The notes below the pieces were generated by a model. The model was not told where the DNA came from. It saw only the letters and a list, made by a program, of their open reading frames with translations, and searched no databases. From Bdellovibrionales bacterium (GTDB taxonomy: Bacteria; Bdellovibrionota; Bdellovibrionia; Bdellovibrionales; JAGQZY01), in contig JANPLN010000030.1 in assembly GCA_031426555.1 (NCBI GenBank), positions 64,001 to 128,000 of the forward strand: a stretch of 64,000 nt of DNA, in the 5' to 3' direction. Below, in pieces: positions 42,779-57,101 of this stretch; the first letter of the stretch is position 1, and each line of letters opens with the position of its first letter. The position numbers were made by a program, and so were the translations under genes.

Positions 42779-44164
42779 TTGAAAGCAAAAGACTTTAGCT
42801 CCCTTCCCTTGTCGCAGTCCCTGTTAAAACTGATCGCTGAAATGGGTTTTTTGGAAATGACACCCATCCAAGCGGCAAGTATTCCTTTGCTGCTGTCGGG
42901 AAAAGATCTTGTGGGTCAATCGCAAACGGGCAGCGGAAAAACTGCCGCGTTTATCATACCAATTCTGGAAAAAATTAAAGTCAGCGATCTCTTCGCCCAG
43001 GCATTGATTTTGTGTCCAACGCGGGAACTGTGTGATCAGGTCTTGCGCGAATGCCGCAAATTTTCCAAGGCGTTCCCCGGTGTACAGACGGTGGCGCTTG
43101 TGGGTGGGCAGCCGTACCCGCAGCAGCTTCAGGCCCTCGAGCGCGGCGCCCAACTGATCGTTGGAACTCCGGGGCGAACCTTAGAGCATCTCAACGAACG
43201 AAATGCACAGTTGGATCGCCTTAAAATATTTGTGCTCGACGAAGCCGATCGCATGTTGGAAGAGGGCTTTACCGACGAGCTCACAGCCATTATCGACCAG
43301 TTGCCCAAAGACCGACAAACCGTGTTTTTTTCGGCAACGTTTCCCGAAGGCGTGGAAGTACTTTCGGATCGCTATCAAAAAAACGCCGAGCGAGTTACCA
43401 TTGAACAAAGTTTGTTAAACACACCGCAAATCGAACAGTATGTTTACGCCAGCGAAAACCCCGAAAAAGGAGAAACTCTTTTCAAAATTCTAAAAAGTCA
43501 TCCGTCTCAGTGCACGTTAATCTTTTGTCGGATGAAAACCGCGGTGGCGCAAATAGGCCAGCAGCTGGCAAAACACAAAGTGAGCTGTGGGGTTTTGCAC
43601 GGAGATCTCGAACAGGTGGAGCGCGATCGAGTGACAACTTTGTTTCGCAATGGAAGCCTGCGAGTTTTAGTTGCCACCGATGTGGCGGCCCGGGGCTTGG
43701 ACATTGATACTTTAGAACTTGTCGTAAACATGGATATGCCTTCGAGCACAGAGATCTACGTGCATCGCATTGGCCGCACTGGCCGAGCCGGTCGCAAAGG
43801 CACAGCGGTGTCTATTGCCACTGAGTATGAAGTTCCGATGGTGGCCGAGATCGAAGAGCTGACGGGTGTAAAGATGCGCCGTCAGGCTTTGAGCGAAAAT
43901 AGCGACTTCCCTGAAGAAATGCAGAGATCCCTCACACGCACGCTTTATATTTCGGGCGGCAAGGGCAACAAGCTTCGACCGGGAGATATTTTAGGAACTT
44001 TGACGGCGGAGCCAAATGCCATCGCCGGAAAAGACGTGGGTAAGATCGAGGTGCACGATCGCTTCAGTTATGTAGCCATCAAATCCTCTGACGTCGACAG
44101 AGCTCTGGCAAAGTTGCAAAGCTCAAAAATCAAAGGATCTAAATTTAAAGTGCACTTACTGTAA
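42779..44164 (+). CDS. dbpA: DEAD-box RNA helicase DbpA
   Basis: MTPIQ, TGSGKT, DEAD, SAT and HRIGRTGR; C-terminal GGK..KLRPGDILG RNA-binding domain; TTG start. Confidence 0.92.
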   Translation: MKAKDFSSLPLSQSLLKLIAEMGFLEMTPIQAASIPLLLSGKDLVGQSQTGSGKTAAFIIPILEKIKVSDLFAQALILCPTRELCDQVLRECRKFSKAFPGVQTVALVGGQPYPQQLQALERGAQLIVGTPGRTLEHLNERNAQLDRLKIFVLDEADRMLEEGFTDELTAIIDQLPKDRQTVFFSATFPEGVEVLSDRYQKNAERVTIEQSLLNTPQIEQYVYASENPEKGETLFKILKSHPSQCTLIFCRMKTAVAQIGQQLAKHKVSCGVLHGDLEQVERDRVTTLFRNGSLRVLVATDVAARGLDIDTLELVVNMDMPSSTEIYVHRIGRTGRAGRKGTAVSIATEYEVPMVAEIEELTGVKMRRQALSENSDFPEEMQRSLTRTLYISGGKGNKLRPGDILGTLTAEPNAIAGKDVGKIEVHDRFSYVAIKSSDVDRALAKLQSSKIKGSKFKVHLL

Positions 44165-47100
44165 CTTTGTTTCCTTTGTAGTGCTTTCATGACTCACGTT
44201 CATCAGATTGTCTTTGGAGTTTCGATCAATCAAAACATTCAGAGGATCTATTCCAGCCTTAAAAGGCTCCTCTTTGACCACAATTTCAAATTTGTTTTCA
44301 CCAGTTTTAATCGTATGTTTTTTAAGATAAATGTACTTTTCATCTTTACCAAGGATGCCCACATCCATCGCTTGGGAAAACTCTTTATTTTCCTCTTTTC
44401 CTTCTTTGTCTGAATAGACTTTTTCAGAAGAAATATTCATACTCACTTTAAAAGTGCCATCCGACAGCTTTTCCACTTGCGCCGTGAGCGGTCGATTTTC
44501 AAAAATCACAATTTTTTCCATCAAATCTGTGACCAGGGCCTTTTGATCGTCTGTGGCTTTACTTTTGACCACGTTTAAGAAATCGATGGAGGTCATATAA
44601 GGAGGTGCCATCCGTGAGTACTTGCCAAGGGTTTCCTTGAGAGCGCCATTAAAAGTGTCCTCGCCCATGTAATCTTTAATGGAATACAAAACCACACTGC
44701 CTTTCCGATAATGAAGATACTGTTGGGATTCCGCCAGATATAGCGGATTCTCGTACTCAGTCTCTTTGCTGCGCCCAAATAAATAACGGTCCAATTCGTA
44801 TTGTAAAAACTTTTTCATCTTTTCACGGCCGTACTCGTGCTCCATAACCATAAGGGCAGAATATTGCGAAAGTGATTCGGAAAGCATGTCGGCACCCTGC
44901 ACATTGGCTCCCATCATCTGATGGGGCCACCACTGGTGAGCCAGCTCATGGGCCGTGATATAAAAAGGGTAGTCAATATCGTCTTCTTTAGAATCATCCA
45001 CTTTGGCAATAAAACCAACTCCTTCAGAAAAGGGAATGGTATTAGGAAAAGACTGTGCAAAGGTTTCGTAGCGTGGAAACTCAATGATGCGATACTGTTT
45101 GTGCTGGTAGGGTCCAAAGTTTTTTGTAAAATAATCTAAGGATTTTTTGGTGGCGTTCACCATTCTATGCAGATTGTACTCGTGCCCTTTGTGATAATAA
45201 ATCTCGATATTCACATCGTTCCACGTGTCGCGAAGGACTTCATAACGTCCCGACAAAAACGCATAAAAATTAATAATTTTTTGATCCATCTTGTAATGAA
45301 AGTAACGGCGACTTCCCTCGGTCCATTCTTTTTGCAAGTAGCCCGGCGCGATAGCTATTTGATCTGCTGTTGTGCTGACGATGGTTTCAAAATCAATCCA
45401 ATAGCCGTTAACGCCGAGGAGCGAATTTTGCCATTGATCTTTGTCGTCGATGGCGGGCTTACGTAATTTGGGTGGAAGCCCGCGCTTTTCGCGAGCTTTG
45501 CGCTCGCCGAGCTCGGAAGACGATTGATATCCAAACGACGGAAAATAATCGAAGTTATTAAAAAAAGTGCCGTTGTAATGAATTTTCCCGATGTTGGTAC
45601 CGTTTTTAATAGTGGATTCATCCACGGTGACGGCATAGTCGCCCTCAAAATCTTGATTGGGCTGGATAGGCTGCGCAAACGTATAGACAACCACTTTTAA
45701 GCGATCGTCTCTTTTTTCTATTGTAGGTATCGAGAACGAAAGTGACCAATCGGCGTCGGGGACGCTAATGAGTACATCATTGATCGCTTGCTGTGTGGTA
45801 TTTTTGAACTTGATTTTTAGTTTCGCACGAACTTTTAATTGTTCTGGAAAAATATCTACGTTGGCAAAAACGGAGGTCAATTGAGCCACGGGGCGCTTAT
45901 CGAATATTTTGTACTGTTTTTCGTAATCGTAAGATCGTTTTTCGGCTTCTTTACGAGAGATATACTCGTTGACGACATTATTTTGATAGAAAAGATAAGA
46001 ACCCAAGACTAAAAAACCAAGGATTGAGGTTGCTAAAGCAGTTTTGAGCGGAGGAGTCAGGATGGCTCTTAACGGAGTTCGCATTTTTTTTAAAGATGTA
46101 GCTTCCGTTCCTCGATGCCAGAGGGCATAGGAAATAATGACGAGCACAGCGGATAAAAACAGCCAGTAAAAATTATAAAGGTGAAATATTCTAAACAAGT
46201 GACCAAAGCCATTCATGTCGGAATACATAGGGAAAGGCTTTTTGTTAAACAGATACAAATAGTGCTCAAAACCAAGGGCCTCGGCGAAGATATCAATAAG
46301 ATAATAAATAACGATCATGCCGTGGGCGAGATATTTATTTTTAAAGACAACCTGAAAAAAGAACGTTAGCGCAATAAGATTGACGTAACTTGGCAATTCC
46401 ACCAAATACAAACGAACCAAATACTGCGTAAGCTCGAAGTTGGTGTAGCCATAGGCCAGTTGGATGGCGATTCCTGAAAACAGAACAGCGGTTAACAATA
46501 AAATGGTGACGAGAACCATATTGATAAATTTTGCAGCAAAAATCACCCCATTAGGTGTGGGCAAAGCATCAATGATTTGATTAATTTTTAGATCGCGGTC
46601 GCGCCAAACAGTCTCCCCCGTGTAAAGAGTAATAACAATAAGTACAAAAAGTGAAAATGTTCCACCAATAAAATCGAGCACGTTGTATGTAACCGGGTAG
46701 GCGTTGGTGCCAAACATTTTTCCAACCTGTGTGCCGGTGATAAACATGTAACCCACGCCAGCTAGCACGATAACGACAAAGTAAATACTTTTGACAGTTT
46801 GCAAGAATTCAAAGGAAAGCTGCTTCAGCAGCAAGGGGGCCCATTTGATATTTTTTAAATCCAGAGCACGCAGAGGATTTATTGATCGAGCCTGGAGAGG
46901 CTCGGCGATAACGGCGTCTGCCTTGCGAGTTTTTGCTTTTTTCGCTGTCTTCGAAAAATTAATGAGCGTTGTGGCAAGTGCGGCAAAGCCTATACCCAGC
47001 CACAAGACGCGATTCCATAAGAAGTAACTTTCAAAAGAGATAGATTGTTGATTTTGTTGATAAACAGTCCAATAGCGGATGGTTTCCGAAATGGCGCGAA

Positions 47101-47764
47101 GACCTAGGGGATCCATCAATGTGCGCAACCATTTGTTGTCGAGATCGTCTAAGAGCTGTCCCGAAGAGGACCACAGCAGAAACAAGAGCGTGACAGCGAT
47201 GTAAATCGGCGCCATTTTTTTGGTTCGAGAACCTATGAAAAAGAAGATAGAACCAAAAATAAAGATGTTTGGCAGTGCAACGGTGAGCAGGGGAAGTAAA
47301 TAACCCTTAAGGGTGTTCACGCCGAGCATAGATGGAAGAACAAAAGGGAGTTTGCTCGCAACAAAGACACCCAGGGGAATGCTTGAGAGAACGAAGAGCA
47401 TAAACAACAGGGCGCCAATAAATCGCCCGATCAAAAAATGTTTTACTTTTAGCGGAGTCGAGAAAATAATTTGGTCGATGTTGTTGATAAAATCTTTGCA
47501 GATGGCCTGTCCAAAAACGGGTGCGATAATAAAAAGATTGAAAGCCGTGAGCAGTGCCACGTAAAGAGTAATGCTCATGGGTGAGTTCACGAAAACCCGA
47601 GCCCCGGTTCCAAAGTTGATTGAAGCTCCGGGAATGGCTCCGCCGGCCGCAAGAGTCATCAACACGGATAGCGCAAAAAACATAACGAAGTAGATGTAAC
47701 TCGACATGGAACGATAGCGGATTTTTAGCTCAAAAGCGATATTTGCAATAATGGCTGTTATCAT
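44156..47764 (-). CDS. ABC-2-type double permease fused to an M1-family aminopeptidase domain
   Basis: Two multi-TM blocks, then a soluble domain with FAQSF, HELAHQWW, ESLSQY and YRKG motifs. Confidence 0.9.
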   Translation of the reverse strand: MITAIIANIAFELKIRYRSMSSYIYFVMFFALSVLMTLAAGGAIPGASINFGTGARVFVNSPMSITLYVALLTAFNLFIIAPVFGQAICKDFINNIDQIIFSTPLKVKHFLIGRFIGALLFMLFVLSSIPLGVFVASKLPFVLPSMLGVNTLKGYLLPLLTVALPNIFIFGSIFFFIGSRTKKMAPIYIAVTLLFLLWSSSGQLLDDLDNKWLRTLMDPLGLRAISETIRYWTVYQQNQQSISFESYFLWNRVLWLGIGFAALATTLINFSKTAKKAKTRKADAVIAEPLQARSINPLRALDLKNIKWAPLLLKQLSFEFLQTVKSIYFVVIVLAGVGYMFITGTQVGKMFGTNAYPVTYNVLDFIGGTFSLFVLIVITLYTGETVWRDRDLKINQIIDALPTPNGVIFAAKFINMVLVTILLLTAVLFSGIAIQLAYGYTNFELTQYLVRLYLVELPSYVNLIALTFFFQVVFKNKYLAHGMIVIYYLIDIFAEALGFEHYLYLFNKKPFPMYSDMNGFGHLFRIFHLYNFYWLFLSAVLVIISYALWHRGTEATSLKKMRTPLRAILTPPLKTALATSILGFLVLGSYLFYQNNVVNEYISRKEAEKRSYDYEKQYKIFDKRPVAQLTSVFANVDIFPEQLKVRAKLKIKFKNTTQQAINDVLISVPDADWSLSFSIPTIEKRDDRLKVVVYTFAQPIQPNQDFEGDYAVTVDESTIKNGTNIGKIHYNGTFFNNFDYFPSFGYQSSSELGERKAREKRGLPPKLRKPAIDDKDQWQNSLLGVNGYWIDFETIVSTTADQIAIAPGYLQKEWTEGSRRYFHYKMDQKIINFYAFLSGRYEVLRDTWNDVNIEIYYHKGHEYNLHRMVNATKKSLDYFTKNFGPYQHKQYRIIEFPRYETFAQSFPNTIPFSEGVGFIAKVDDSKEDDIDYPFYITAHELAHQWWPHQMMGANVQGADMLSESLSQYSALMVMEHEYGREKMKKFLQYELDRYLFGRSKETEYENPLYLAESQQYLHYRKGSVVLYSIKDYMGEDTFNGALKETLGKYSRMAPPYMTSIDFLNVVKSKATDDQKALVTDLMEKIVIFENRPLTAQVEKLSDGTFKVSMNISSEKVYSDKEGKEENKEFSQAMDVGILGKDEKYIYLKKHTIKTGENKFEIVVKEEPFKAGIDPLNVLIDRNSKDNLMNVSHESTTKETKLQ

Positions 47765-48633
47765 TTTACAAATCCCTTGATGTGAGCAAAGTAATAGTCT
47801 TCCAGACTGGCTTCTGCGCGATCAAAGTTTTCGGGGGCCACCGTCGAATAAACCTTTACGATAATTTTCCCGGCTGAAAAACGGGAATTGATCACTTGGT
47901 ACTGCGTTTCGATTGCGGGAACAGATTGTTTCTCAACGATGCGCGACCACACCTTTCCTTCGATATCTTTGAGGGCTTTTTCGGGTGTGGTTTGCACAAG
48001 CACTTTGCCATTATTGATAATTGCAAAATTCTGGCAGAGATCGGCCACATCGCTGACAATGTGAGTGGATAGAATCACGGTCACATCGGAACCGATTTCG
48101 CTGAGGATATTATAAAAACGCAGACGCTCTTCTGGATCCAAGCCCGCCGTGGGTTCGTCCACGATCAGAAGCTGCGGCTGAGCAATGAGGGCCTGGGCAA
48201 TACCAAAGCGTTGTTTCATGCCACCGGAGTAAGTATTGACCGATTTATTTTTGTGTTGCGAAAGATTTGTGAGCTCTAAAAAATGCAGGACACGTTCTTT
48301 ACGTTGTTGGGGGTCGGTAATTCCTTTCAGCGTGGCGATGTAGTCCAAGAGATCAGTTGCTGAAATTTTAGGATACACGCCAAATTCCTGGGGCAAATAG
48401 CCTAAAACTTTTCGCAGATCTTCTTCTTGCGTCAAGGCGTCTAGATTTTGAAATTGAATGGAACCGGTGTCGGGGGCTTGCAAGGTGGCGATGGTGCGCA
48501 TAAGGGATGATTTTCCAGCCCCGTTTGGTCCAAGGAGGCCAAACATTCCCTTGGGAATTTGCAGATGGATGTTTTGCAGTGCGCGAACACCATTGTCGTA
48601 GGTTTTACTAACGTTTTCGATCGTTAAGCTCAT
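47761..48633 (-). CDS. ABC transporter ATP-binding protein
   Basis: GPNGAGKS, YSGGMKQR, VDEPTAGLD and LSTH motifs; ATGA-coupled to the permease. Confidence 0.96.
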   Translation of the reverse strand: MSLTIENVSKTYDNGVRALQNIHLQIPKGMFGLLGPNGAGKSSLMRTIATLQAPDTGSIQFQNLDALTQEEDLRKVLGYLPQEFGVYPKISATDLLDYIATLKGITDPQQRKERVLHFLELTNLSQHKNKSVNTYSGGMKQRFGIAQALIAQPQLLIVDEPTAGLDPEERLRFYNILSEIGSDVTVILSTHIVSDVADLCQNFAIINNGKVLVQTTPEKALKDIEGKVWSRIVEKQSVPAIETQYQVINSRFSAGKIIVKVYSTVAPENFDRAEASLEDYYFAHIKGFVK

Positions 48634-48699: not shown

Positions 48700-49506
48700 T
48701 TACCTGTGAAGGTGAAAGATGCGCTCTTCGGGGAACATTTCCAAGCGAGAGTAATCGGCAAGCATGGCGTTTTCGAACTTTGAAATGCTCTGCCTGTACA
48801 GGCCAAAATATTTAATCATATCAATCATCCAAATGGGCACTTTTGTGGTGGATTTTAGCTCCAGGATCACCATGCTCTGCGTGTCCTCGAAGGAGGCTGT
48901 GTGGTCATAGTGTTGAAGCAGCTGGTCGTTGGGGATCACATTCCAGTCTGTCTCGTGCTGAAAACGCATGTCTCTGTCGAAGGTCACTCGGGCGTAGTCG
49001 TCGACGGTGGAAATATAGGCTTTGCGGCGATATTGTGTTAAAACTTTCGGGCGCGTATTCAGGCGATAGCGCCAGTATAAAAATTCATTCACGGCGCCTT
49101 GCGATTTTTCATCAATCACAATCTCGCCTTCGAGGATTTTATCAATGTAGAGTCTGAGATCAGTTTCAAAAACTTTTCCGCGAATTTTTCGAACGACGTC
49201 ATTGCTCTTCTTCTTAACTTCGAAAAAATACGGAGGTTTCGGGTGCGTTCCATAGGAACGGATTCGCAAATTAAAACGGTTGGCCTGCGAAAGTTGTTTA
49301 TAATTAAAAATCTTAAAGTCGTCCGAGTCGAAATAAAGCGAGTTGATCGTGTAAAAGTGATCGGCCTCGAGCTGCGAATAATAGTCCATTTCGCAATACA
49401 TCTCTACATACTGCGAAATCGGCGCCACGAGGTCCAAGGGAACCAGATATTTAAGCTCGTAGCGTTCAAGAATTAGCGGCGAAACTGCATCGACCGTTGG
49501 GATCAT
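48700..49506 (-). CDS. VTC-domain (polyphosphate polymerase-like, CYTH/TTM fold) protein
   Basis: ERYELKY, INSLYFDS, LRIRSY, FEVKKK, YRRKAY, RVTFD, ILELK and ISKF motifs. Confidence 0.9.
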   Translation of the reverse strand: MIPTVDAVSPLILERYELKYLVPLDLVAPISQYVEMYCEMDYYSQLEADHFYTINSLYFDSDDFKIFNYKQLSQANRFNLRIRSYGTHPKPPYFFEVKKKSNDVVRKIRGKVFETDLRLYIDKILEGEIVIDEKSQGAVNEFLYWRYRLNTRPKVLTQYRRKAYISTVDDYARVTFDRDMRFQHETDWNVIPNDQLLQHYDHTASFEDTQSMVILELKSTTKVPIWMIDMIKYFGLYRQSISKFENAMLADYSRLEMFPEERIFHLHR

Positions 49507-50714
49507 AAAAGTCCATTCTGGTGAAAGAGAAACGACGACTGAAAGTCTTGGCTTTCGTTGAGCCATTCGGTATAGGACAAAAACAAATCCCGTTCAGATT
49601 CAACGCTGGAAATTTTGGCAGTGAGGTAATCCGCATAAAGTGCGATGGTTGAAATGGGCTCGGAGGCTTTGAGGCGTTTGAAAGTTTTTTCGATTTGCAG
49701 GTCGTATTTGGAAGTGACGTCCAAGTCGAGATCATTGGCCATGCGGATGATTTTGTTGCGAAGCGTGTAGACCTGAACCTTTTTTTCGTTTTTGTCTAAA
49801 AGGCTCTGGCGCTTGGTTTCGATGATTTTGTTCTCAAACTGCCAATCCTGAACCGGGTTCGAGGAGAGAAAAGGCATATTCACGGACACGCGAAATGTCA
49901 TCTGCGTTTGATTCTCTCGAGTTTTATCCACCCCAACGCTAAACGTATCGATGAGTCGGTTGTTTTGCGAGGCGGTGTAGGCTTTTAAATATTCGAGCTG
50001 TTGCAGTTGTAGATCGAAAAGCTGAGTGTATAGTTTTTCGCGGGCGGGGTCGTAACTTTTTACATGTTCCAAAACTTTCACGCGACTCAGAAGGTTCTCG
50101 TCAGCCTTAAATCCGTCGATGGTCCAGTCCGGGTTGATGTTGGCAATGCGTTGCTCAATCTCGGCGCGCTTATCGTGAATCTCGATCACTTTCTTGCGAA
50201 AGTTTTTTATCGCAATGCTCGACTTGATAAAGTCTTTAATGCTGCCGCTTTCCACGCTCAGCAAGGACTTGGACTGGGCTCGTTTTTGCGCTTCTAAGAT
50301 AGCGATGGTTTTTTTAGATAGATCTTCAATTTTTTTCGTGTACATGATTTCGATACACAAAAGCAAAAACTCAAGCTGGTCTTGTTGATCCCACAATATA
50401 TTTTGTTGCTCAGCGATCAGTTTACTGGTGGAAGCAATACGCTGTTGAGCGATCGCCTCTCGCCCACCACGAGGATTGAACTTGAGAAAGTATTCATACC
50501 CAGCGCGGTCGTCTTTGCCGGCTTTAACATCGCGGCCATCATCTTTTTCGACAACAAGCTGAATTTGACTAAATCCCATTTCTAAAAAATTGCCACCTTC
50601 GAAGGGTTTTAAGCGAAGATCCTCTTTTTTTTTCTCTAGCAAATCCTGCAGAGTCCATCCATGGCTCAGGGGAGCAAAGGAGGTTATTAAAAGAATGAGG
50701 ACCAGACGTTTCAT
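49503..50714 (-). CDS. Divergent TolC/outer-membrane-efflux-like protein
   Basis: Signal peptide; two helical halves each preceded by a beta-hairpin (YEYFLKFNP; FRVSVNMPF); ATGA overlaps on both sides. Confidence 0.6.
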   Translation of the reverse strand: MKRLVLILLITSFAPLSHGWTLQDLLEKKKEDLRLKPFEGGNFLEMGFSQIQLVVEKDDGRDVKAGKDDRAGYEYFLKFNPRGGREAIAQQRIASTSKLIAEQQNILWDQQDQLEFLLLCIEIMYTKKIEDLSKKTIAILEAQKRAQSKSLLSVESGSIKDFIKSSIAIKNFRKKVIEIHDKRAEIEQRIANINPDWTIDGFKADENLLSRVKVLEHVKSYDPAREKLYTQLFDLQLQQLEYLKAYTASQNNRLIDTFSVGVDKTRENQTQMTFRVSVNMPFLSSNPVQDWQFENKIIETKRQSLLDKNEKKVQVYTLRNKIIRMANDLDLDVTSKYDLQIEKTFKRLKASEPISTIALYADYLTAKISSVESERDLFLSYTEWLNESQDFQSSFLFHQNGLL

Positions 50715-51634
50715 TGTTTGGGCTCTAGATTGGAGGCAGAGGTTGCAGGATTGAGCGATGTTTTTGGTACCGGCAGCAGTTCGTCGGGGATCCAAGATTT
50801 AGGGTAGATCACAACTTTTTCGCCCATCAAAAACGTATTAGTTTCGGTCAGTTGAACAAGGACTTCGCGACCCCAAACCTTGATGAGCGATGAGTTGGTT
50901 AACCGCTCTGGCATTTCGACGATGCGCGAGCCAATACTGATCACCCGGCCTGAGAATTTTTTGCGTTTGTCGGCGATGGACGCCAATCTTAGCTCTTGAT
51001 TCATTTCGACCTGTGAATAGACGTTTTCGTGAATGTAGGCTTTGATCATGTCGGGTTTTTGCGAAAGGATTGAAAGCAAAGTTGTAAATGGCGGAACTGT
51101 TTGGCCACTTTTAAAATTCACAGCGCCAACGATTCCGCTTTTTTCGGCAAAGATCAAAAGATGATCTTTTTGCGATTGGGCGAATTCCAGTTCTCTTTTT
51201 GCACTTTCAATATCCAGGGACAGTGAGCTCCCTTTTGGAGAAATATCATTGATGGATTCATCCAGAAGATTCTTAATCTCGTTGCGCATATTTTTTTCGA
51301 ATTGAAGTTTTAGAAGAGTGGTTTCCATTTCGCGAATGCGAGCATCGATTTCGTTTTGGTTGAGTTCGGCGAGAAGAGTGCCTTTTTCAACAAATTGGCC
51401 AGAGATCACATGAATGCGTTTAATTTTAACGGGATACTCAAAGTTGATAGATAGTTCGTAGGAGTCGGCAATGCCAAAAAAGCTCAAGCGATTGGTGCTG
51501 CCGAGGGTGCTGACCAACGTGATCAACAGGACAGCGAACGCCCAAGCGATCAGGAGAGTTTTGTTGTCGCCTTCGATAAATTGCTGTTTAAACTCTTTTA
51601 GACCCCATGGGCGTGAAATCCTGGATGCTCGCAT
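50711..51634 (-). CDS. HlyD-like periplasmic adaptor
   Basis: Single TM; lipoyl half-motifs IHVISGQFVEKGTLL and AEKSGIVG..GQTV flanking a coiled coil; GRVISIG beta-barrel. Confidence 0.85.
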   Translation of the reverse strand: MRASRISRPWGLKEFKQQFIEGDNKTLLIAWAFAVLLITLVSTLGSTNRLSFFGIADSYELSINFEYPVKIKRIHVISGQFVEKGTLLAELNQNEIDARIREMETTLLKLQFEKNMRNEIKNLLDESINDISPKGSSLSLDIESAKRELEFAQSQKDHLLIFAEKSGIVGAVNFKSGQTVPPFTTLLSILSQKPDMIKAYIHENVYSQVEMNQELRLASIADKRKKFSGRVISIGSRIVEMPERLTNSSLIKVWGREVLVQLTETNTFLMGEKVVIYPKSWIPDELLPVPKTSLNPATSASNLEPKQ

Positions 51635-51638
51635 CTGT

Positions 51639-52322
51639 TTAAACCTCAATAGTGCTTTCCTGCATCAGCAGTTGGGCACCCTTTACTGTTGGAATCGTTC
51701 GAACGTCTTCGATCAGGTGGTCGAAACTGGATTGGGTGTGAAGCTTAAATTGATAGGCATAGTCAAAACGATTTCCCTGGGCCATTTCGCGAAGGGTGAC
51801 CAGCGAAAACATTTTGCAATGCTTGTTGAGCGTTGTTTCGAGCTGTTCGCGCGAGTCTTTGCTGGGCTCGAAGTTAAAGCGCAAAAGGCCATCAAACTGA
51901 GCAGGGGTTACAAACTCCACACGATCCAATACAAGCACACTGGCAATAAAACCCATGCAGCCGACGCAGGCGATGGCGTAAGAGTGCACGCCGCACGCCA
52001 CACCCACGGCCATGGCGCCAAATAGAAAAAACATATCGCGCGGGTCTTTCAGGTTTGAACGAAAGCGTAGCAATGAAATCGCACCCATCATCCCGAGGCC
52101 GCGAGCGAGGTTGTCGCCAATGGCCTGCATGGCGATTGTAGAAACGATCGGGCAAAGGACAAGAGCGTGGAGGAAATTTTTAGAATAGGAGAGGCCGCGG
52201 AAGGTGTAGTTGTAAATCAGTGCGATTCCAACCCCCAAAAGAAACGACAAACAAATACCATAAATAACAGCCCAAATTCCGGCGTTTTCAGTGGATGTTT
52301 GTAAAACTTGGAAATCTAGCAT
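51639..52322 (-). CDS. DUF4956-like membrane protein (VTC-associated)
   Basis: IGDNLARGLGMMGAISLLRFRSNLKDPRD...AVGVACG; about 4 TMs plus an ACT-like C-terminal domain. Confidence 0.88.
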   Translation of the reverse strand: MLDFQVLQTSTENAGIWAVIYGICLSFLLGVGIALIYNYTFRGLSYSKNFLHALVLCPIVSTIAMQAIGDNLARGLGMMGAISLLRFRSNLKDPRDMFFLFGAMAVGVACGVHSYAIACVGCMGFIASVLVLDRVEFVTPAQFDGLLRFNFEPSKDSREQLETTLNKHCKMFSLVTLREMAQGNRFDYAYQFKLHTQSSFDHLIEDVRTIPTVKGAQLLMQESTIEV

Positions 52323-52413
52323 CGCTGAACTTATATGTTGATTGTTAAGACTTTGCTAAGATATCCCCTCGACCAAGTAATAAAAATAGACCTGTCTAAA
52401 ATCTACACACTCC

Positions 52414-53967
52414 TTAATTGAGATATGGGCGGGCTTGTTTTAAATAAACTTGGCGCGCGTCGGTGTCTTCGGCATCCACCTTGAATTCGATATCCAAAGA
52501 AAAATCAGAAGTCTCTGTTTTGCTCCCTAGAAGAGGGCGGAAGTGCTCAACCGCTTTCAAACACTGATACGAAAGATCTTTGGCTTCTTCGTCTGTCATC
52601 ACGGCTGTTGGATTGTCTTGCGGAAGAATCGTTTCCATGTCGTTGGCAATGTTGGACTGCTGCAGAACATTCACAGTGTACTTGTCTTGATTGAGGGGAT
52701 CTTGCTTGTCGTAGAGAACAAGAATTTTTTGCGGGCGAATGCCGGGATTCGGGTTCGCAACACTATGGAAGTCGCCCCGCTGGGCTTCGATGTAAACACC
52801 CTCGCCAGAAAGCATGGGAACATTGGCAATGTTCTTGGTGACCACAACACCATCTGCCAGCTCGTCGCCAAAGGAGGGGTTGATCTGAATTCCCATGTAA
52901 ACATCTTGATGGGGAATGGAAAAGTAATTTCGCTCTTCGAAGGCGCGTAAATTCCAGATCGATCCCCAAACAATTTTGAGAGCCTCTGTGAGATTCGCGA
53001 TTTTTTCTTCCTTGCTTAGATCTTTTTTCTTCTTCGTGGCTTTGTAAGCCGCCGACGTGTAAAGACCCGCACCATTAAAATTTGGAAGATCTTCGGAGTT
53101 TGTGGCACTGCGAAGCTTCATGTTGCGCTTCTTACCTTTTTTGTCAGTAATAGTATCAAAAAGTGCGAGCATGTTTTCGATGAGAACAGAATCCACAACT
53201 GTTTGTGGCGACATAATCAGCGCATTGAGTTCGTTCAATTTAGTGGTGCGATATTCTGTGGCGGCTACGCGCTTCATGAGTGGATCGCGAGTCACTTTTT
53301 GAATCATTGTTTTTACTGCAGGATTACTTTCAACAAATTGACTATAGAAAGAAAATGGCAGCGCATACGAGTAACGAACTACAGTGCGCTCAGGAGTGTT
53401 GAGGGCCTTGGCGAGTTCGGCGTAGTTTGCGGCTTTGGAGCCAACTTTGTCGGCGAAAGTCCAATCCATTTCATCCATTGTTAAAATTCGGTCGATGGAG
53501 AGATCGTACTTCAATTCGACTTTTTGTTTCGCATTGCTATTGTAAAAAGCAAGAGCAGCTTCTTCTGTGCTCGGTGAAATCTTGATGGTATCTGGAGCAA
53601 TCAACTCCATTTCGATATAACTTCCGTCCTGGACGCCGTTAAAGATAGGATTATTAATCCCTCCTTCAAGCTGAGAAATATCCAAATTAGGAGTTTTGCG
53701 CGCGCTGGATTTAATTTGTACGTGCGACAGAAGATTTTGCTGCTGCAGCGTGATTACACCAGAAACCACAGACAGATTCATCGGCAGCTCGGCAAAAACC
53801 GGAATCGCCAGAGGATTCAGCGATTTGTATTTTGCGTTTTCAGAAAGCATATCTTGGGCCGACAAGATCACCAGTTGTCCAATAGCTTTTCCTGGGTTCA
53901 TAACCATAGCCTGAGCAAAGCCGCTCAGAGAGTAAAAAAGCGTGAGTGTAAAAATTAAATTTTTCAT
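52414..53967 (-). CDS. Exported phosphohistidine-swivel plus ATP-grasp (PPDK/PEP-synthase N-type) protein
   Basis: Signal peptide ending FAQA; GVIT...LSHVQI...PN; GSKAANY, RSATNSED..FNGAGLY, DIEF and QARP motifs. Confidence 0.85.
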   Translation of the reverse strand: MKNLIFTLTLFYSLSGFAQAMVMNPGKAIGQLVILSAQDMLSENAKYKSLNPLAIPVFAELPMNLSVVSGVITLQQQNLLSHVQIKSSARKTPNLDISQLEGGINNPIFNGVQDGSYIEMELIAPDTIKISPSTEEAALAFYNSNAKQKVELKYDLSIDRILTMDEMDWTFADKVGSKAANYAELAKALNTPERTVVRYSYALPFSFYSQFVESNPAVKTMIQKVTRDPLMKRVAATEYRTTKLNELNALIMSPQTVVDSVLIENMLALFDTITDKKGKKRNMKLRSATNSEDLPNFNGAGLYTSAAYKATKKKKDLSKEEKIANLTEALKIVWGSIWNLRAFEERNYFSIPHQDVYMGIQINPSFGDELADGVVVTKNIANVPMLSGEGVYIEAQRGDFHSVANPNPGIRPQKILVLYDKQDPLNQDKYTVNVLQQSNIANDMETILPQDNPTAVMTDEEAKDLSYQCLKAVEHFRPLLGSKTETSDFSLDIEFKVDAEDTDARQVYLKQARPYLN

Positions 53968-53976
53968 AGAGACCAC

Positions 53977-55332
53977 CTATTTCGTCAAGCTCAACGCCGC
54001 TGTGTTGAGAGAGGAAGATTTAATTGTGTTATCAGTAAACATTTCAAGCTTTCCGTCCGGCGCGATGCTGATCCACTGCTCGAGACTGCCAGTAAAGGCC
54101 TCTTGCAAGGTCATCGTCGCTACTTCAATCACTTCTGGCATTGTCGCTTTGGCTTTTTCTAAAGATAAAAATTCACTTTGATAATAAAGCCAGTTGTCTT
54201 GAATCAGGAAGCCTTCGCTGTAGATCGTATTGAGCATCGCCTGATACGCAGCAACCGAAGTCACCGTCGACATTCGATTGATTTCCTTGTTGATAAACTG
54301 ACAAGATTTGGCGATGAGCGCAAGTGCCGGAGCTTTCTTTTCCCAAGGAATCGACGCAACAATGTTAGTTTTTAGGTCAGCTGTCACGGACGAGAGAGCG
54401 AGTAGATTCTCGGGATTTATTCCTTGAGCAGCAAACGTTTGCGCCGCAGCTTCCACAGAAATGACGCCAGCCTGTTTTGCTAGAGCTATGAGTGCCTCGG
54501 GTGTGAAGTTGTAATAGCGACGAAGCAACACAAGGATCCGTTGCAAATAATTGTGGCCGTCTTTTTCATACCAAGGATTTTCGCGAAGGAATCTTTCGAT
54601 GCGACCTATCACATCCTCGCTGAGCTGATTATGAATGGTATTGCGAATTTTATAAAGTTCCAGAACTCGGCTGTCTTTTGTCCCATAGGTCGCAGAAAAG
54701 AAGTCATACACCTGTGTGATAAGGTTGCGCGCTTCCGCCAGCTCCGAAGAATCCGCGATGGGGCTTTCTTTAGCGAGCAAAAAAGCTGGAAGAAATTGAT
54801 AATCATCATTGATAGAGCTCATGTAAAAATTAAAAAAGTGAGCCGCAAATTTGATCTCGTACTCCATTCCACTGATTCCGCGCATCGCAAAAGATCTAGC
54901 GAGTTTGGAGTCTGGGTAGATTTCCACGTAATAGCGTTCGAGAACCCAGTTTTTAACCATTTCCACAGCTCGCGGCATAGCTGCATTGGCGACTGCCGCT
55001 AAGGCTTCGTTGTCGATACCGTGATTTGTGCTCAACGCATTCCCATACACAAATTCGCTGTTGAGTTCGTAATAATTGGTTGTGAACAGGTTGCCAGTGT
55101 ACATTCCATACTGATCAACGAGCACACGTGCTTGGGCGTTACGAAAAGCAGAGGTAAATAGGTGACCTTTTGGAAAGACATCGTAGGCAGTTTGGCCCTT
55201 AGGTCCCTGGCTCACGTTGGAGCCAAACGGACCCTTGTTCTTTTCGAGAATCGCTTGAAAGTCAGACTGAAGATCGGCGCTGGCTAAATTGGCGCTGAAG
55301 AGAAGTGGTAACAGAAGTACGAGCTTCATCAT
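53977..55332 (-). CDS. Secreted helical hypothetical protein
   Basis: Signal peptide ending ASA; tightly packed between the two neighbouring genes. Confidence 0.8.
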   Translation of the reverse strand: MMKLVLLLPLLFSANLASADLQSDFQAILEKNKGPFGSNVSQGPKGQTAYDVFPKGHLFTSAFRNAQARVLVDQYGMYTGNLFTTNYYELNSEFVYGNALSTNHGIDNEALAAVANAAMPRAVEMVKNWVLERYYVEIYPDSKLARSFAMRGISGMEYEIKFAAHFFNFYMSSINDDYQFLPAFLLAKESPIADSSELAEARNLITQVYDFFSATYGTKDSRVLELYKIRNTIHNQLSEDVIGRIERFLRENPWYEKDGHNYLQRILVLLRRYYNFTPEALIALAKQAGVISVEAAAQTFAAQGINPENLLALSSVTADLKTNIVASIPWEKKAPALALIAKSCQFINKEINRMSTVTSVAAYQAMLNTIYSEGFLIQDNWLYYQSEFLSLEKAKATMPEVIEVATMTLQEAFTGSLEQWISIAPDGKLEMFTDNTIKSSSLNTAALSLTK

Positions 55333-55334
55333 GA

Positions 55335-57101
55335 TTATCTCCCGCCTAAAACTTTATTTTTTTCTTGCTCAAAAGCAGCTTCGCCACAGGCGTTTTTGTC
55401 GCTGTCGGGTGCGCAACCACGCACGCGGCCCATCAGGCGAATACGAATTTTATCGATACCTCTTACGGCGTAAAACTGAACTTTGTCTTGTTCGTAAACC
55501 TGCTCGTAGAGGGGATATTGGCCTTGCATCGCATACGAAGTTTTTGTGATTTTCTTTTTGTAATCGAGGTAGGAGGGGAAAGAAACTTCGGGATTGTTGA
55601 AAACAAACGAATTGCCACGTTTTTCAAAAACATTTTTCGAGCCATACAGTCCTTTGTAATAAGCTTCGCGACTATCTGCACTCAGTAATAGGTCCGCACC
55701 CTCGCGTTTATCTAATCCGTTGGAGCCTTTTGTGTCATAGGTGATTTGATACTCAACTCCCATGACTTCCAGTTCACTATCTCCGTTAATATCATAGAGG
55801 TCGAAATCTGCTGAGTTGTTACCAAAGAAGTAAACCTGTTTCATTTTTTCATTCTCGACCGGCATAACGTGTCGCATTTCCCACACGTGACCGAGCGACA
55901 ACCGCAAGCAACCGCTGGAGACGCCTCCGCGTTTGACAGCCCAAAGCTGGGTGTGGTCTTCAGGGGCGCTGAGCGCTTCTCTCGTAGCTTTTGAAAAATT
56001 ACTACCGTTGAAACGAACAGCTGGATTGTGGAATCCATTATGGATTTCTTCGAAATCCATTTTTGGTGCCCATCCGTAGTAAGGTTCATCACGGATGTTA
56101 TCAACATTTCGATTGCTATGGGCGAGGAACGTCCAGAGGCCAGGTGTTGCAAATTTGGGAATGTCGTTGCCGAAATTATCGTTTGTGGTGCCCTTAAACG
56201 AACCTGTCGGGTAGATTGCCGTGTATTCAGGATAATTTAGGCTACAGGATCCTTGTACGCAGGAAATTGCAGACGCCCACTTTCCGTTTTGATCGATGAT
56301 TTTGATTTGATATTTTACCCCAGTGGCCATGGCAAAAAGCTCTGTGGCCTGCGGAGCGAACTGCTCTGAAGAGTTCGACGCGAGGGCCTGAGTGGCGGTG
56401 GCCTGCAATTTGGCAAGCAGTGCACTGTTCGGCTGCTCAGTGATATTCACACGTCCCCAAACCAAACTATTCAGGGCAATGACTGTTTCTTCGGCAGTGG
56501 CAGTGAAAACAGATTCTGGTCTGCGGCCGTCGAGGAGGGAGGCAACGATTGTTTGCCATCGAGCGTATTCTTTATTGAGATCCAGGTCGATCATAAACAC
56601 GCGACCTGGGTTAAGCGCGATGATTGTTTCTAAGCTTTTTTGATAAAGTTGCTCTGCGGAAAGAGTGTCCTGCACTGAATTTTGAATGTTGTACTGAGAC
56701 GAATTTACGATTTGTGAGAAGAGGTCCATTTGTGGAGTGACATCGCCGTTGACGTTCACATTCACAGCGGGTCGACTGCCGCTGGTTGCTTCTTTGTAAA
56801 AGGTGTCGCGATAAACGAGGTCGTACATGTAGTCTTTGATGGTCTGTTCGTCGAGGATCACCGAAACGCGTGTTTGGTTTCCGCGAGCTGTGCGAATGTG
56901 AATTCGCGAAGGATATTCACTGCGTGGTGCGAAGCCTACGTAAAAGCTTGGGTAGTAGCTCTCGGTGGCATCATTGCCTGGGTTCCAGCTGGTTCCCCAA
57001 AAGGGAAGTTGCTTCGCGTAGTCCTGAATTGTTTGAATTTGAGCAGCTGAAGCGACGAGGACGGTGGCGATGAAAAACTTTTTTAAAAGGGAAAAAAACA
57101 T
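55335..57101 (-). CDS. Secreted protein with an L,D-transpeptidase (YkuD)-like catalytic motif
   Basis: Signal peptide; TPG...PYY...GFHN...VSSGCLRL. Confidence 0.6.
   Translation of the reverse strand: MFFSLLKKFFIATVLVASAAQIQTIQDYAKQLPFWGTSWNPGNDATESYYPSFYVGFAPRSEYPSRIHIRTARGNQTRVSVILDEQTIKDYMYDLVYRDTFYKEATSGSRPAVNVNVNGDVTPQMDLFSQIVNSSQYNIQNSVQDTLSAEQLYQKSLETIIALNPGRVFMIDLDLNKEYARWQTIVASLLDGRRPESVFTATAEETVIALNSLVWGRVNITEQPNSALLAKLQATATQALASNSSEQFAPQATELFAMATGVKYQIKIIDQNGKWASAISCVQGSCSLNYPEYTAIYPTGSFKGTTNDNFGNDIPKFATPGLWTFLAHSNRNVDNIRDEPYYGWAPKMDFEEIHNGFHNPAVRFNGSNFSKATREALSAPEDHTQLWAVKRGGVSSGCLRLSLGHVWEMRHVMPVENEKMKQVYFFGNNSADFDLYDINGDSELEVMGVEYQITYDTKGSNGLDKREGADLLLSADSREAYYKGLYGSKNVFEKRGNSFVFNNPEVSFPSYLDYKKKITKTSYAMQGQYPLYEQVYEQDKVQFYAVRGIDKIRIRLMGRVRGCAPDSDKNACGEAAFEQEKNKVLGGR

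Follow-up and report, generated by a model that had tools for sequence, protein, structure and literature searches.

The window analyzed here, a 64,000-nucleotide stretch of a Bdellovibrionales genome (contig JANPLN010000030.1, positions 64,001 to 128,000), contains on its reverse strand a gene (52414..53967) for the catalytic half of a dikinase, a protein of 517 amino acids with a signal-like N-terminus, a phosphohistidine swivel domain, and a C-terminal ATP-grasp domain, which raises the question of where such an enzyme would work, with which donor, and on which acceptor. PEP synthase (PEPS), PPDK, and rifampin phosphotransferase (RPH) are cytoplasmic, begin with the ATP-grasp domain, and include an acceptor-binding domain; ATP is generally assumed to be absent from the periplasm; and to our knowledge all the characterized swivel dikinases work in the cytoplasm or the plastid. 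An earlier note on this DNA had proposed an exported phosphotransferase with permuted domains and no substrate domain, whose acceptor domain was supplied in trans and whose donor could be polyphosphate from an adjacent VTC unit. The explanation that we favor, by a little over even chances, is that the dikinase and the product of the upstream gene, UP1, constitute an exported two-part phosphotransferase with ATP as the donor and a putative cell-envelope acceptor, and with a third protein, UP2, acting next.

With its ATG start the dikinase frame encodes 517 residues, and with a GTG nine nucleotides upstream 520. A heuristic rule predicts a Sec signal peptide at about residues 1-20 (53908..53967; this feature and all the other window features given below are on the reverse strand), a basic, then hydrophobic, then small-residue stretch. 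The swivel domain follows at about residues 21-145 (53533..53907), with Glu60 and with His82 (codon 53722-53724) in the segment SGVITLQQQNLLSHVQI (residues 69-85), and the ATP-grasp domain, with its motifs in the PEPS/RPH order, spans about residues 160-514 (52426..53490) and includes K178, R286, E292, D293, E494, K496, Q511, and R513, the C-terminus being QARPYLN with QARP at 511-514, three residues before the end. The sole Pfam match was PPDK_N (residues 173-514, E 2e-16), and of the NCBIfam PEP-synthase models the protein covered only the N-terminal third (55 bits, the cut-off being 598). Structure prediction, which the earlier note had recommended as a check, gave an AlphaFold model of pLDDT 92 (built from 121 sequences), whose best fold matches were RPH (5HV1, ATP-grasp, E 1e-16), HpeI, and PEP synthase, the match of the swivel domain being weak (2HI6, E 3e-3). 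His82, which aligned with the swivel histidine of GWD and of PEPS/PPDK, was kept in 120 of the 121 aligned rows—the remaining row having a gap—and the nucleotide-site residues K178, R286, E292, D293, K496, Q511, and R513 in all 121, so that the histidine of the LSH motif and the intact ATP-grasp domain ending in QARP stood as the earlier note had described them. Judged by these conserved residues, the aligned histidine, and the fold, the protein would be a member of the swivel-domain dikinase superfamily. The first homolog search returned 408 matches, and among the best 120, which were listed, all the named ones were Bdellovibrionota-type records.

That no substrate domain is present was correct for the dikinase reading frame but not for the enzyme, whose missing domain would be UP1 (53977..55332), a predominantly helical protein of 451 amino acids with a signal-like N-terminus that we take for the N-terminal, acceptor-binding half; the trans-acting acceptor domain postulated earlier can thus be given a name. 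Among the 80 genome loci surveyed around dikinase homologs (the best 80 of 591), 10 had UP1 and the dikinase in one fused open reading frame (ORF), these being loci of Bdellovibrionota and Gammaproteobacteria, and in 6 the two stood side by side as separate ORFs. Our class sample comprised 251 genomes of Bdellovibrionia, of which 37 matched the dikinase, 30 of them strongly; those 30 divided into 22 split and 8 fused forms, the latter with a frame of 950-1056 codons. At the window locus the two genes share a reading frame, but the frames differ in 11 of the 15 split loci scored, and therefore UP1 and the dikinase are separate genes and a joining by stop-codon readthrough is rejected. The complex prediction for the pair scored 0.73, against 0.00 for the best of three controls, with 100% contact agreement between runs and a partner pLDDT of at least 83; of 157 solved complexes 116 pass the mark applied to such scores, as do 2 of 215 mismatched pairs, counts that are only rough for alignments of our own. 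In the complex model UP1 docks on residues 224-243 of the dikinase (53239..53298), a predicted patch whose motif occurred in 112 of 121 split forms, in none of 14 long forms (two having a near variant), in 1 of 59 proteins of a wider branch, and in none of 44 proteins of a 970-amino-acid fused family, a distribution that may be due to descent since the split forms are kin. UP1, a partner of some 430 residues, holds invariant Arg, His, and Glu residues. Taken together, we regard the architecture of two halves as well supported and very probably correct.

UP1 itself gave no Pfam match, no PDB match, and no usable match in Atlas, and its model (mostly helical, pLDDT 94) returned only four-helix bundles in the fold searches. 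A search with the UP1 profile, in turn, recovered 175 cluster representatives, including the 970-amino-acid fused family, whose N-terminal half is homologous to UP1 (HHalign 99.9%, 396 columns). A homolog of UP1 is also AZI86_09165 of a Bdellovibrio bacteriovorus strain. This family was present in 4 of 201 genomes on the Bacteroidota side and in 18 of 401 on the Pseudomonadota side, and most of its members were missed by the UP1 profile alone (2 of the 201 genomes versus 4 with the family's own profile). The wider branch (L014-L080; Bacteroidota, Myxococcota, Fibrobacterota, and Verrucomicrobiota) has the same His-ATP core behind an alpha/beta N-domain, conserved over about 170 residues and unrelated to UP1, one genome (G253) holding several paralogs. 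An equation of UP1 with that N-domain was tried and rejected, the profile match reaching 95% only with the L053/L077 rows in the alignment and falling to 0.1% without them.

Signal peptides were judged by a hydropathy-plus-basic-residue rule with a threshold of 1.8. The dikinase could be scored in 106 of the 121 rows, the other 15 having no usable anchor, and a signal-like N-terminus was found in 102 of those 106—in agreement with the Sec-type signal proposed earlier—as well as in 95 of 103 UP1 proteins, whereas six cytoplasmic PEPS/PPDK controls scored 0.3-1.1. The five fused proteins examined had the signal at their start and a hydrophilic linker at the point where the split forms carry their second signal. 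In longer homologs the core was fused to cadherin, fibronectin-III, Calx-beta, and S-layer domains, as we take part of the accessions to denote. The dikinase, UP1, and UP2 each carry predicted export signals. Among the longer homologs the core lay embedded in surface proteins of 1400-3900 amino acids with adhesin-type repeats (P0232-P0351; L076:8987-15145), some of which had two copies of the core or a phosphoesterase domain.

The neighboring genes provided the principal indication of the acceptor. UP2 (55335..57101; 588 amino acids) has a hydrophobic N-terminus and an L,D-transpeptidase-like motif with invariant His358 and Cys398, the L,D-transpeptidase (YkuD) motif being His ... S-H-G-C-x-R. 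This gene was found in 30 of the 251 class genomes, exactly the 30 with this dikinase type, and was adjacent in 29; the histidine and the cysteine were invariant in all 12 aligned sequences, 9 of which had SHGC, and the L,D-transpeptidase-like matches in Atlas were weak (0.86-0.88). In addition, a beta-lactamase-fold gene was present in 16 of the 20 class regions of the split type, and at the 970-amino-acid family—for which 21 of the 22 loci were examined—a gene of the penicillin-binding/beta-lactamase fold adjoined the family gene in 20 of 21, and all 16 neighbors that were aligned showed the SxxK, SxN, and K[ST]G motifs. This company of serine and cysteine enzymes of transpeptidase fold points to a cell-envelope acceptor, an assignment that comes from the neighbors only and that we hold tentatively, as less probable than its contrary.

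The neighborhoods likewise inform about the donor. A gene for an ATP/ADP-carrier homolog (NTT-like) lay beside the 970-amino-acid family in 9 of the 21 loci, in one of them only as a HEAT fragment where the contig ends; 20 of the 22 genomes that have the family contained such a gene, versus 2 of 26 that lack it. None of the 21 loci contained VTC, DUF4956, or UP2. The occurrence of this family next to NTT-like carriers and never next to VTC favors ATP over polyphosphate, and we consider ATP the probable phosphoryl donor.

As a working mechanism we propose that each of the two proteins, UP1 and the dikinase, would be exported by itself and that they would then dock in the periplasm, the docking of UP1 on the ATP-grasp domain holding in place the two points that the His domain could travel between, as proposed for GWD. 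ATP bound in the ATP-grasp domain would phosphorylate His82 with its beta-phosphate, releasing AMP and Pi, and the His domain would next move over to UP1, where the acceptor may be held by the invariant Arg, His, and Glu; from the chemistry of the family, the overall reaction would be ATP + H2O + acceptor -> AMP + Pi + acceptor-phosphate. The acceptor would most likely be a cell-envelope substrate of the peptidoglycan type, acted on thereafter by the transpeptidase-like UP2, and the phosphate might serve either as a tag on the polymer or to activate a carboxylate, which the Cys/Ser enzymes would use in acyl transfer. In the window lineage the candidate sources of ATP would be the prey cytoplasm—predation being known among relatives in the Bdellovibrionota—or the VTC-DUF4956 unit. 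A more general formulation, which we put forward as a speculation with the chances well against it, is that of widespread periplasmic, energy-driven cell-wall machines, in which an exported dikinase would activate a peptidoglycan-type acceptor by phosphorylation, a partner of transpeptidase fold would form or re-form bonds with no need for a pentapeptide donor, and the fuel would come from interchangeable modules. Most phyla would have a partner of the serine type, whereas that of Bdellovibrionia and of some Gammaproteobacteria would be of the cysteine type; the fuel would be delivered by an NTT carrier in some lineages, and in that of the window it would come from prey nucleotides or from the VTC-DUF4956-adaptor unit.

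Several observations weigh against this explanation. The UP2 of the window has SSGC, with Ser in place of the motif His found in 9 of 12; UP2 has no family match over cut-off, YkuD (PF03734) reaching E 0.095 at best and appearing in 4 of 12; and three genomes (G171, G072, and G195; L340, L341, and L342) have a second UP2 copy without a nearby dikinase. The beta-lactamase-fold gene was found neither in the window genome nor in 3 other split-type genomes, and was lacking at all 8 fused class loci. The wider branch has its own, unrelated N-domain, and the acceptors may therefore differ. Complex predictions, for their part, tend to succeed when the pair consists of the two halves of a split gene. 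As to the fuel, 6 of the 9 NTT matches scored 31-40 bits, far under the TIGR00769 cut-off of 387; the NTT profile was built from the adjacent copies, and the NTT-positive genomes may be kin; and no NTT-like gene was found in any of the 30 class genomes with the dikinase, so that such a carrier does not account for the ATP supply there.

Canonical YkuD genes stand shortly upstream of UP2 in two genomes (L343:6133-6846 and L344:7092-7820). In G064, of the same genus, the beta-lactamase-fold gene lies between the dikinase and DUF4956 (L123:7839-8786), where the window genome has only 92 bp (52323-52413) and no copy elsewhere.

The VTC unit of the window begins 92 bp after the dikinase stop with a DUF4956 membrane protein (51639..52322), followed by a HlyD-type periplasmic adaptor (50711..51649), a signal-bearing protein without a Pfam match (49503..50795, likely start 50714), which by its position may be an outer-membrane factor, and a VTC-domain protein of the polyphosphate-polymerase family (48700..49566, likely start 49506). 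This unit (48700-52322), which looks like a synthesis-and-export system, recurs in L111, L132, L133, L137-L139, L142, and L146, and is the basis for the alternative explanation carried over from the earlier note; namely, that polyphosphate or some other phosphoryl donor would be synthesized and exported by it and would load His82 outside the cytoplasm. VTC was present in 17 of the 30 class genomes with the dikinase and lay within 8 kb of it in 7 of those 17, against a chance of about 0.5% per copy, and these 7 showed four layouts (tandem-downstream, tandem-upstream, convergent, and divergent) in three families; within the window's own family, VTC occurred in 5 of 5 dikinase genomes versus none of 14 others; in five non-adjacent cases the contig was short or ended nearby; and VTC-DUF4956 loci without a dikinase carried CotH kinases (2 of 18) or, in five, a protein with a kinase-like motif. 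Against those findings, VTC was not found in 13 of the 30 dikinase genomes, which 13 showed neither VTC nor NTT; 19 of 60 genomes without the dikinase had it; a VTC gene was near none of the 21 loci of the fused family and near only 1 of the 80 wider loci; and in all these counts the kin are not independent. The link between VTC and the dikinase that the earlier note had pointed to is accordingly more than chance, yet not required, VTC not having been found in so many of the dikinase genomes. With VTC so often not found and every residue of the nucleotide site invariant, polyphosphate as the donor is a weak proposal; we know of no polyphosphate-using member of the family, which also counts against it, and we deem it unlikely.

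An alternative to which we likewise give a low probability is that the exported enzyme mainly hydrolyzes external ATP to AMP and 2 Pi via His82, the locus forming with VTC a phosphate-acquisition island. In the available text of PMC13553574, hydrolysis accounts for about 80% of the ATP turnover by potato GWD1 in vitro; moreover, metallophosphoesterase genes occur in some dikinase loci and are fused in some long homologs, and the dikinase is patchily present (30 of 251 genomes). Scavenging would nevertheless leave unaccounted for the 430 residues of UP1 with their invariant Arg, His, and Glu, as well as the strict link to UP2 and the enzymes of penicillin-binding fold.

Still more doubtful is an RPH-type small-molecule kinase that would inactivate or capture an external compound, the Ser and Cys enzymes performing further modifying steps. 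The best fold matches of the dikinase are indeed RPH and HpeI, RPH (5HV1) being the closest solved ATP-grasp fold, and a relative of 970 amino acids scored on the models of RPH and of the PigC/RedH-type ligases, which we compared alongside, although below the cut-offs of the RPH, PigC, and RedH models. RPH, however, has the order ATP-grasp, substrate domain, C-terminal His, and differs from the dikinase in that order and in the predicted export; no RPH-type substrate domain was found in UP1 by sequence and fold searches; and the class A beta-lactamase models gave the neighbors only about 20-27 bits, the cut-offs being 200 or more.

A glucan kinase in the sense of GWD, acting on periplasmic or prey glucans, had to be weighed on account of the domain layout. 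According to the accessible portion of PMC13553574 (central domain, PDB 9HA9/9QVI), GWD1 has a helical central domain, a His domain, and an ATP domain, and its E971, V989, L990, and H992 take positions like those of E60, L79, L80, and H82 in the dikinase, the helical–His–C-terminal ATP-grasp order and the sizes being similar to those of UP1 plus the dikinase. The permuted order described in the earlier note is consequently real, but not new, since the histidine before the ATP-grasp domain is the order of GWD. A Leu-Ser-His motif, with a Glu some 21-22 residues ahead of its His, and an N.EDL...GAGLY signature are also common to both, and in the wider branch the His domain gave a match of 96% to GWD versus 35% to PEPS/PPDK. 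Unlike GWD1, the dikinase has no CBM45 (no Pfam match to CBM45 or any other CBM, such as the CBM20 of PWD (GWD3), was found on the locus proteins), is predicted to be exported, and is split between the helical and His domains, and its ATP-grasp motifs follow the PEPS/RPH order: in the GWD1-type proteins that we fetched from metagenomes (L149-L228) EDL...GAGLY comes after WxSxW, while in PEPS, RPH, and the dikinase family the two are reversed, the GWD1-type order being an internal rearrangement. The GWD family PF22973 (cut-off 27 bits) did not match the window dikinase and gave 14-19 bits in 7 of 44 homologs, whereas 11 of 11 fetched GWDs passed. By profile UP1 matched the GWD central domain (9HA9) at 0.5%, the N-half of the 970-amino-acid family reaching 8% (E 0.004), and the identity of the two domains was rejected; 9HA9, present in the PDB sequence copy, was not listed in two fold searches with UP1, which by itself does not exclude it. 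Nor is the His domain specifically GWD-like throughout, the resemblance being strong in the wider branch, weak in the split group (GWD 27%, PEPS/PPDK 5%), and absent in the 970-amino-acid family, which is equally near to both (95% and 94%). GWD was also looked for among the longer homologs, where the matches listed (the best 120 of 317) were bacterial surface proteins only. A 49-row tree did not settle the placement of the exported families against GWD and PEPS/PPDK (72/59, long branches), and hence we make no claim about how GWD originated. By its sequence, the dikinase resembles GWD in layout and is not a GWD member, and we consider a glucan kinase very improbable.

Least credible of all is a cytoplasmic or cytoplasm-facing location with N-termini that are not export signals: although the signals were called by a simple rule and ATP is not expected in the periplasm, the signal-like starts on the dikinase, UP1, and the fused forms, the confinement of the second signal to the split forms, and the homologs fused to surface domains leave that explanation very little probability.

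The favored two-part exported phosphotransferase has precedent in its chemistry, domain order, and gene splitting, but not in its predicted location and partners. In the consulted part of PMC12167813, HpeHI, CreHI, and PpsAB are dikinases distributed, like the present one, over two genes—HpeI (9GOJ) being our third fold match—although there the ATP-grasp domain is cut from the swivel plus acceptor, whereas here swivel and ATP-grasp are on one chain and the putative acceptor domain is apart, both with predicted signals. PEP synthase and PPDK share the ATP-grasp and swivel folds, and databases label the homologs "PEP/pyruvate-binding domain-containing protein"; the dikinase, however, has no pyruvate-binding barrel, shows the reversed order, and has the motif NLLSHVQ in place of GGXTS/CHAA (PMC12167813, same part), and the window genome has a separate PPDK. 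A literature search, which mostly did not cover subscription papers and was without supplements, returned no description of an exported dikinase, nor is the family described in the available portions of 10.64898/2026.09.25.754361 and 10.1101/2023.11.21.568195. As far as the sequences permit us to judge, the module is a real and conserved dikinase, predicted to be exported and apparently undescribed.

The exported dikinases that in some lineages have ATP/ADP-carrier homologs nearby would make a deliberate use of ATP in the periplasm testable, and the family offers a possible role for the NTT proteins of free-living bacteria, whose genes are called of unknown function in the available text of PMC5381601, where the word dikinase does not occur. 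UP1, with no solved relative, would be a new acceptor domain, and the split form supplies a small soluble His-plus-ATP-grasp unit for assay. The family is, furthermore, a lead on why VTC-DUF4956 genes accompany kinases. In five loci (L126:14524-16050, L127:1764-3290, L128:1021-2511, L132:8250-9611, and L146:8523-9866) Cys-rich, signal-bearing proteins of 450-510 amino acids without a Pfam or PDB match stand beside VTC and contain a QQDRxGN ... DND motif that, to our eye, recalls Fam20/CotH-type kinases. The pairing of CotH with VTC in clusters of CotH, polyphosphate polymerase, and DUF4956 appears in the accessible part of 10.1101/768473; these clusters resemble the window in placing VTC and DUF4956 beside a kinase, and differ in that the CotH fold is unrelated to the dikinase and that the VTC association is optional at dikinase loci.

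Some minor observations complete the picture. Searches of PDB sequences with P0001, UP1, UP2, the kinase-like VTC neighbor, and the 420-amino-acid serine enzymes gave nothing useful, and scans for promoters and terminators stayed at chance level. Full GWD-type proteins occur in single ORFs without an obvious transit peptide in L151, L163, L186, L190, L195, and L196; these are CBM45-like and look prokaryotic, and the five that were scanned exceeded the cut-off for the GWD His domain. The HlyD adaptor of the VTC unit has a C-terminal extension of 300 residues in many genomes (weak DUF3616 match), and the window genome contains a second VTC-DUF4956 pair, beside a CYTH-domain gene (G000:C62:50965-52319, L131). 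Directly after VTC, on the same strand, the window contains genes for an ABC ATPase and for an ABC-2 permease of 1202 amino acids fused to an M1 peptidase domain (44156-48633), which pair is also found in G064.
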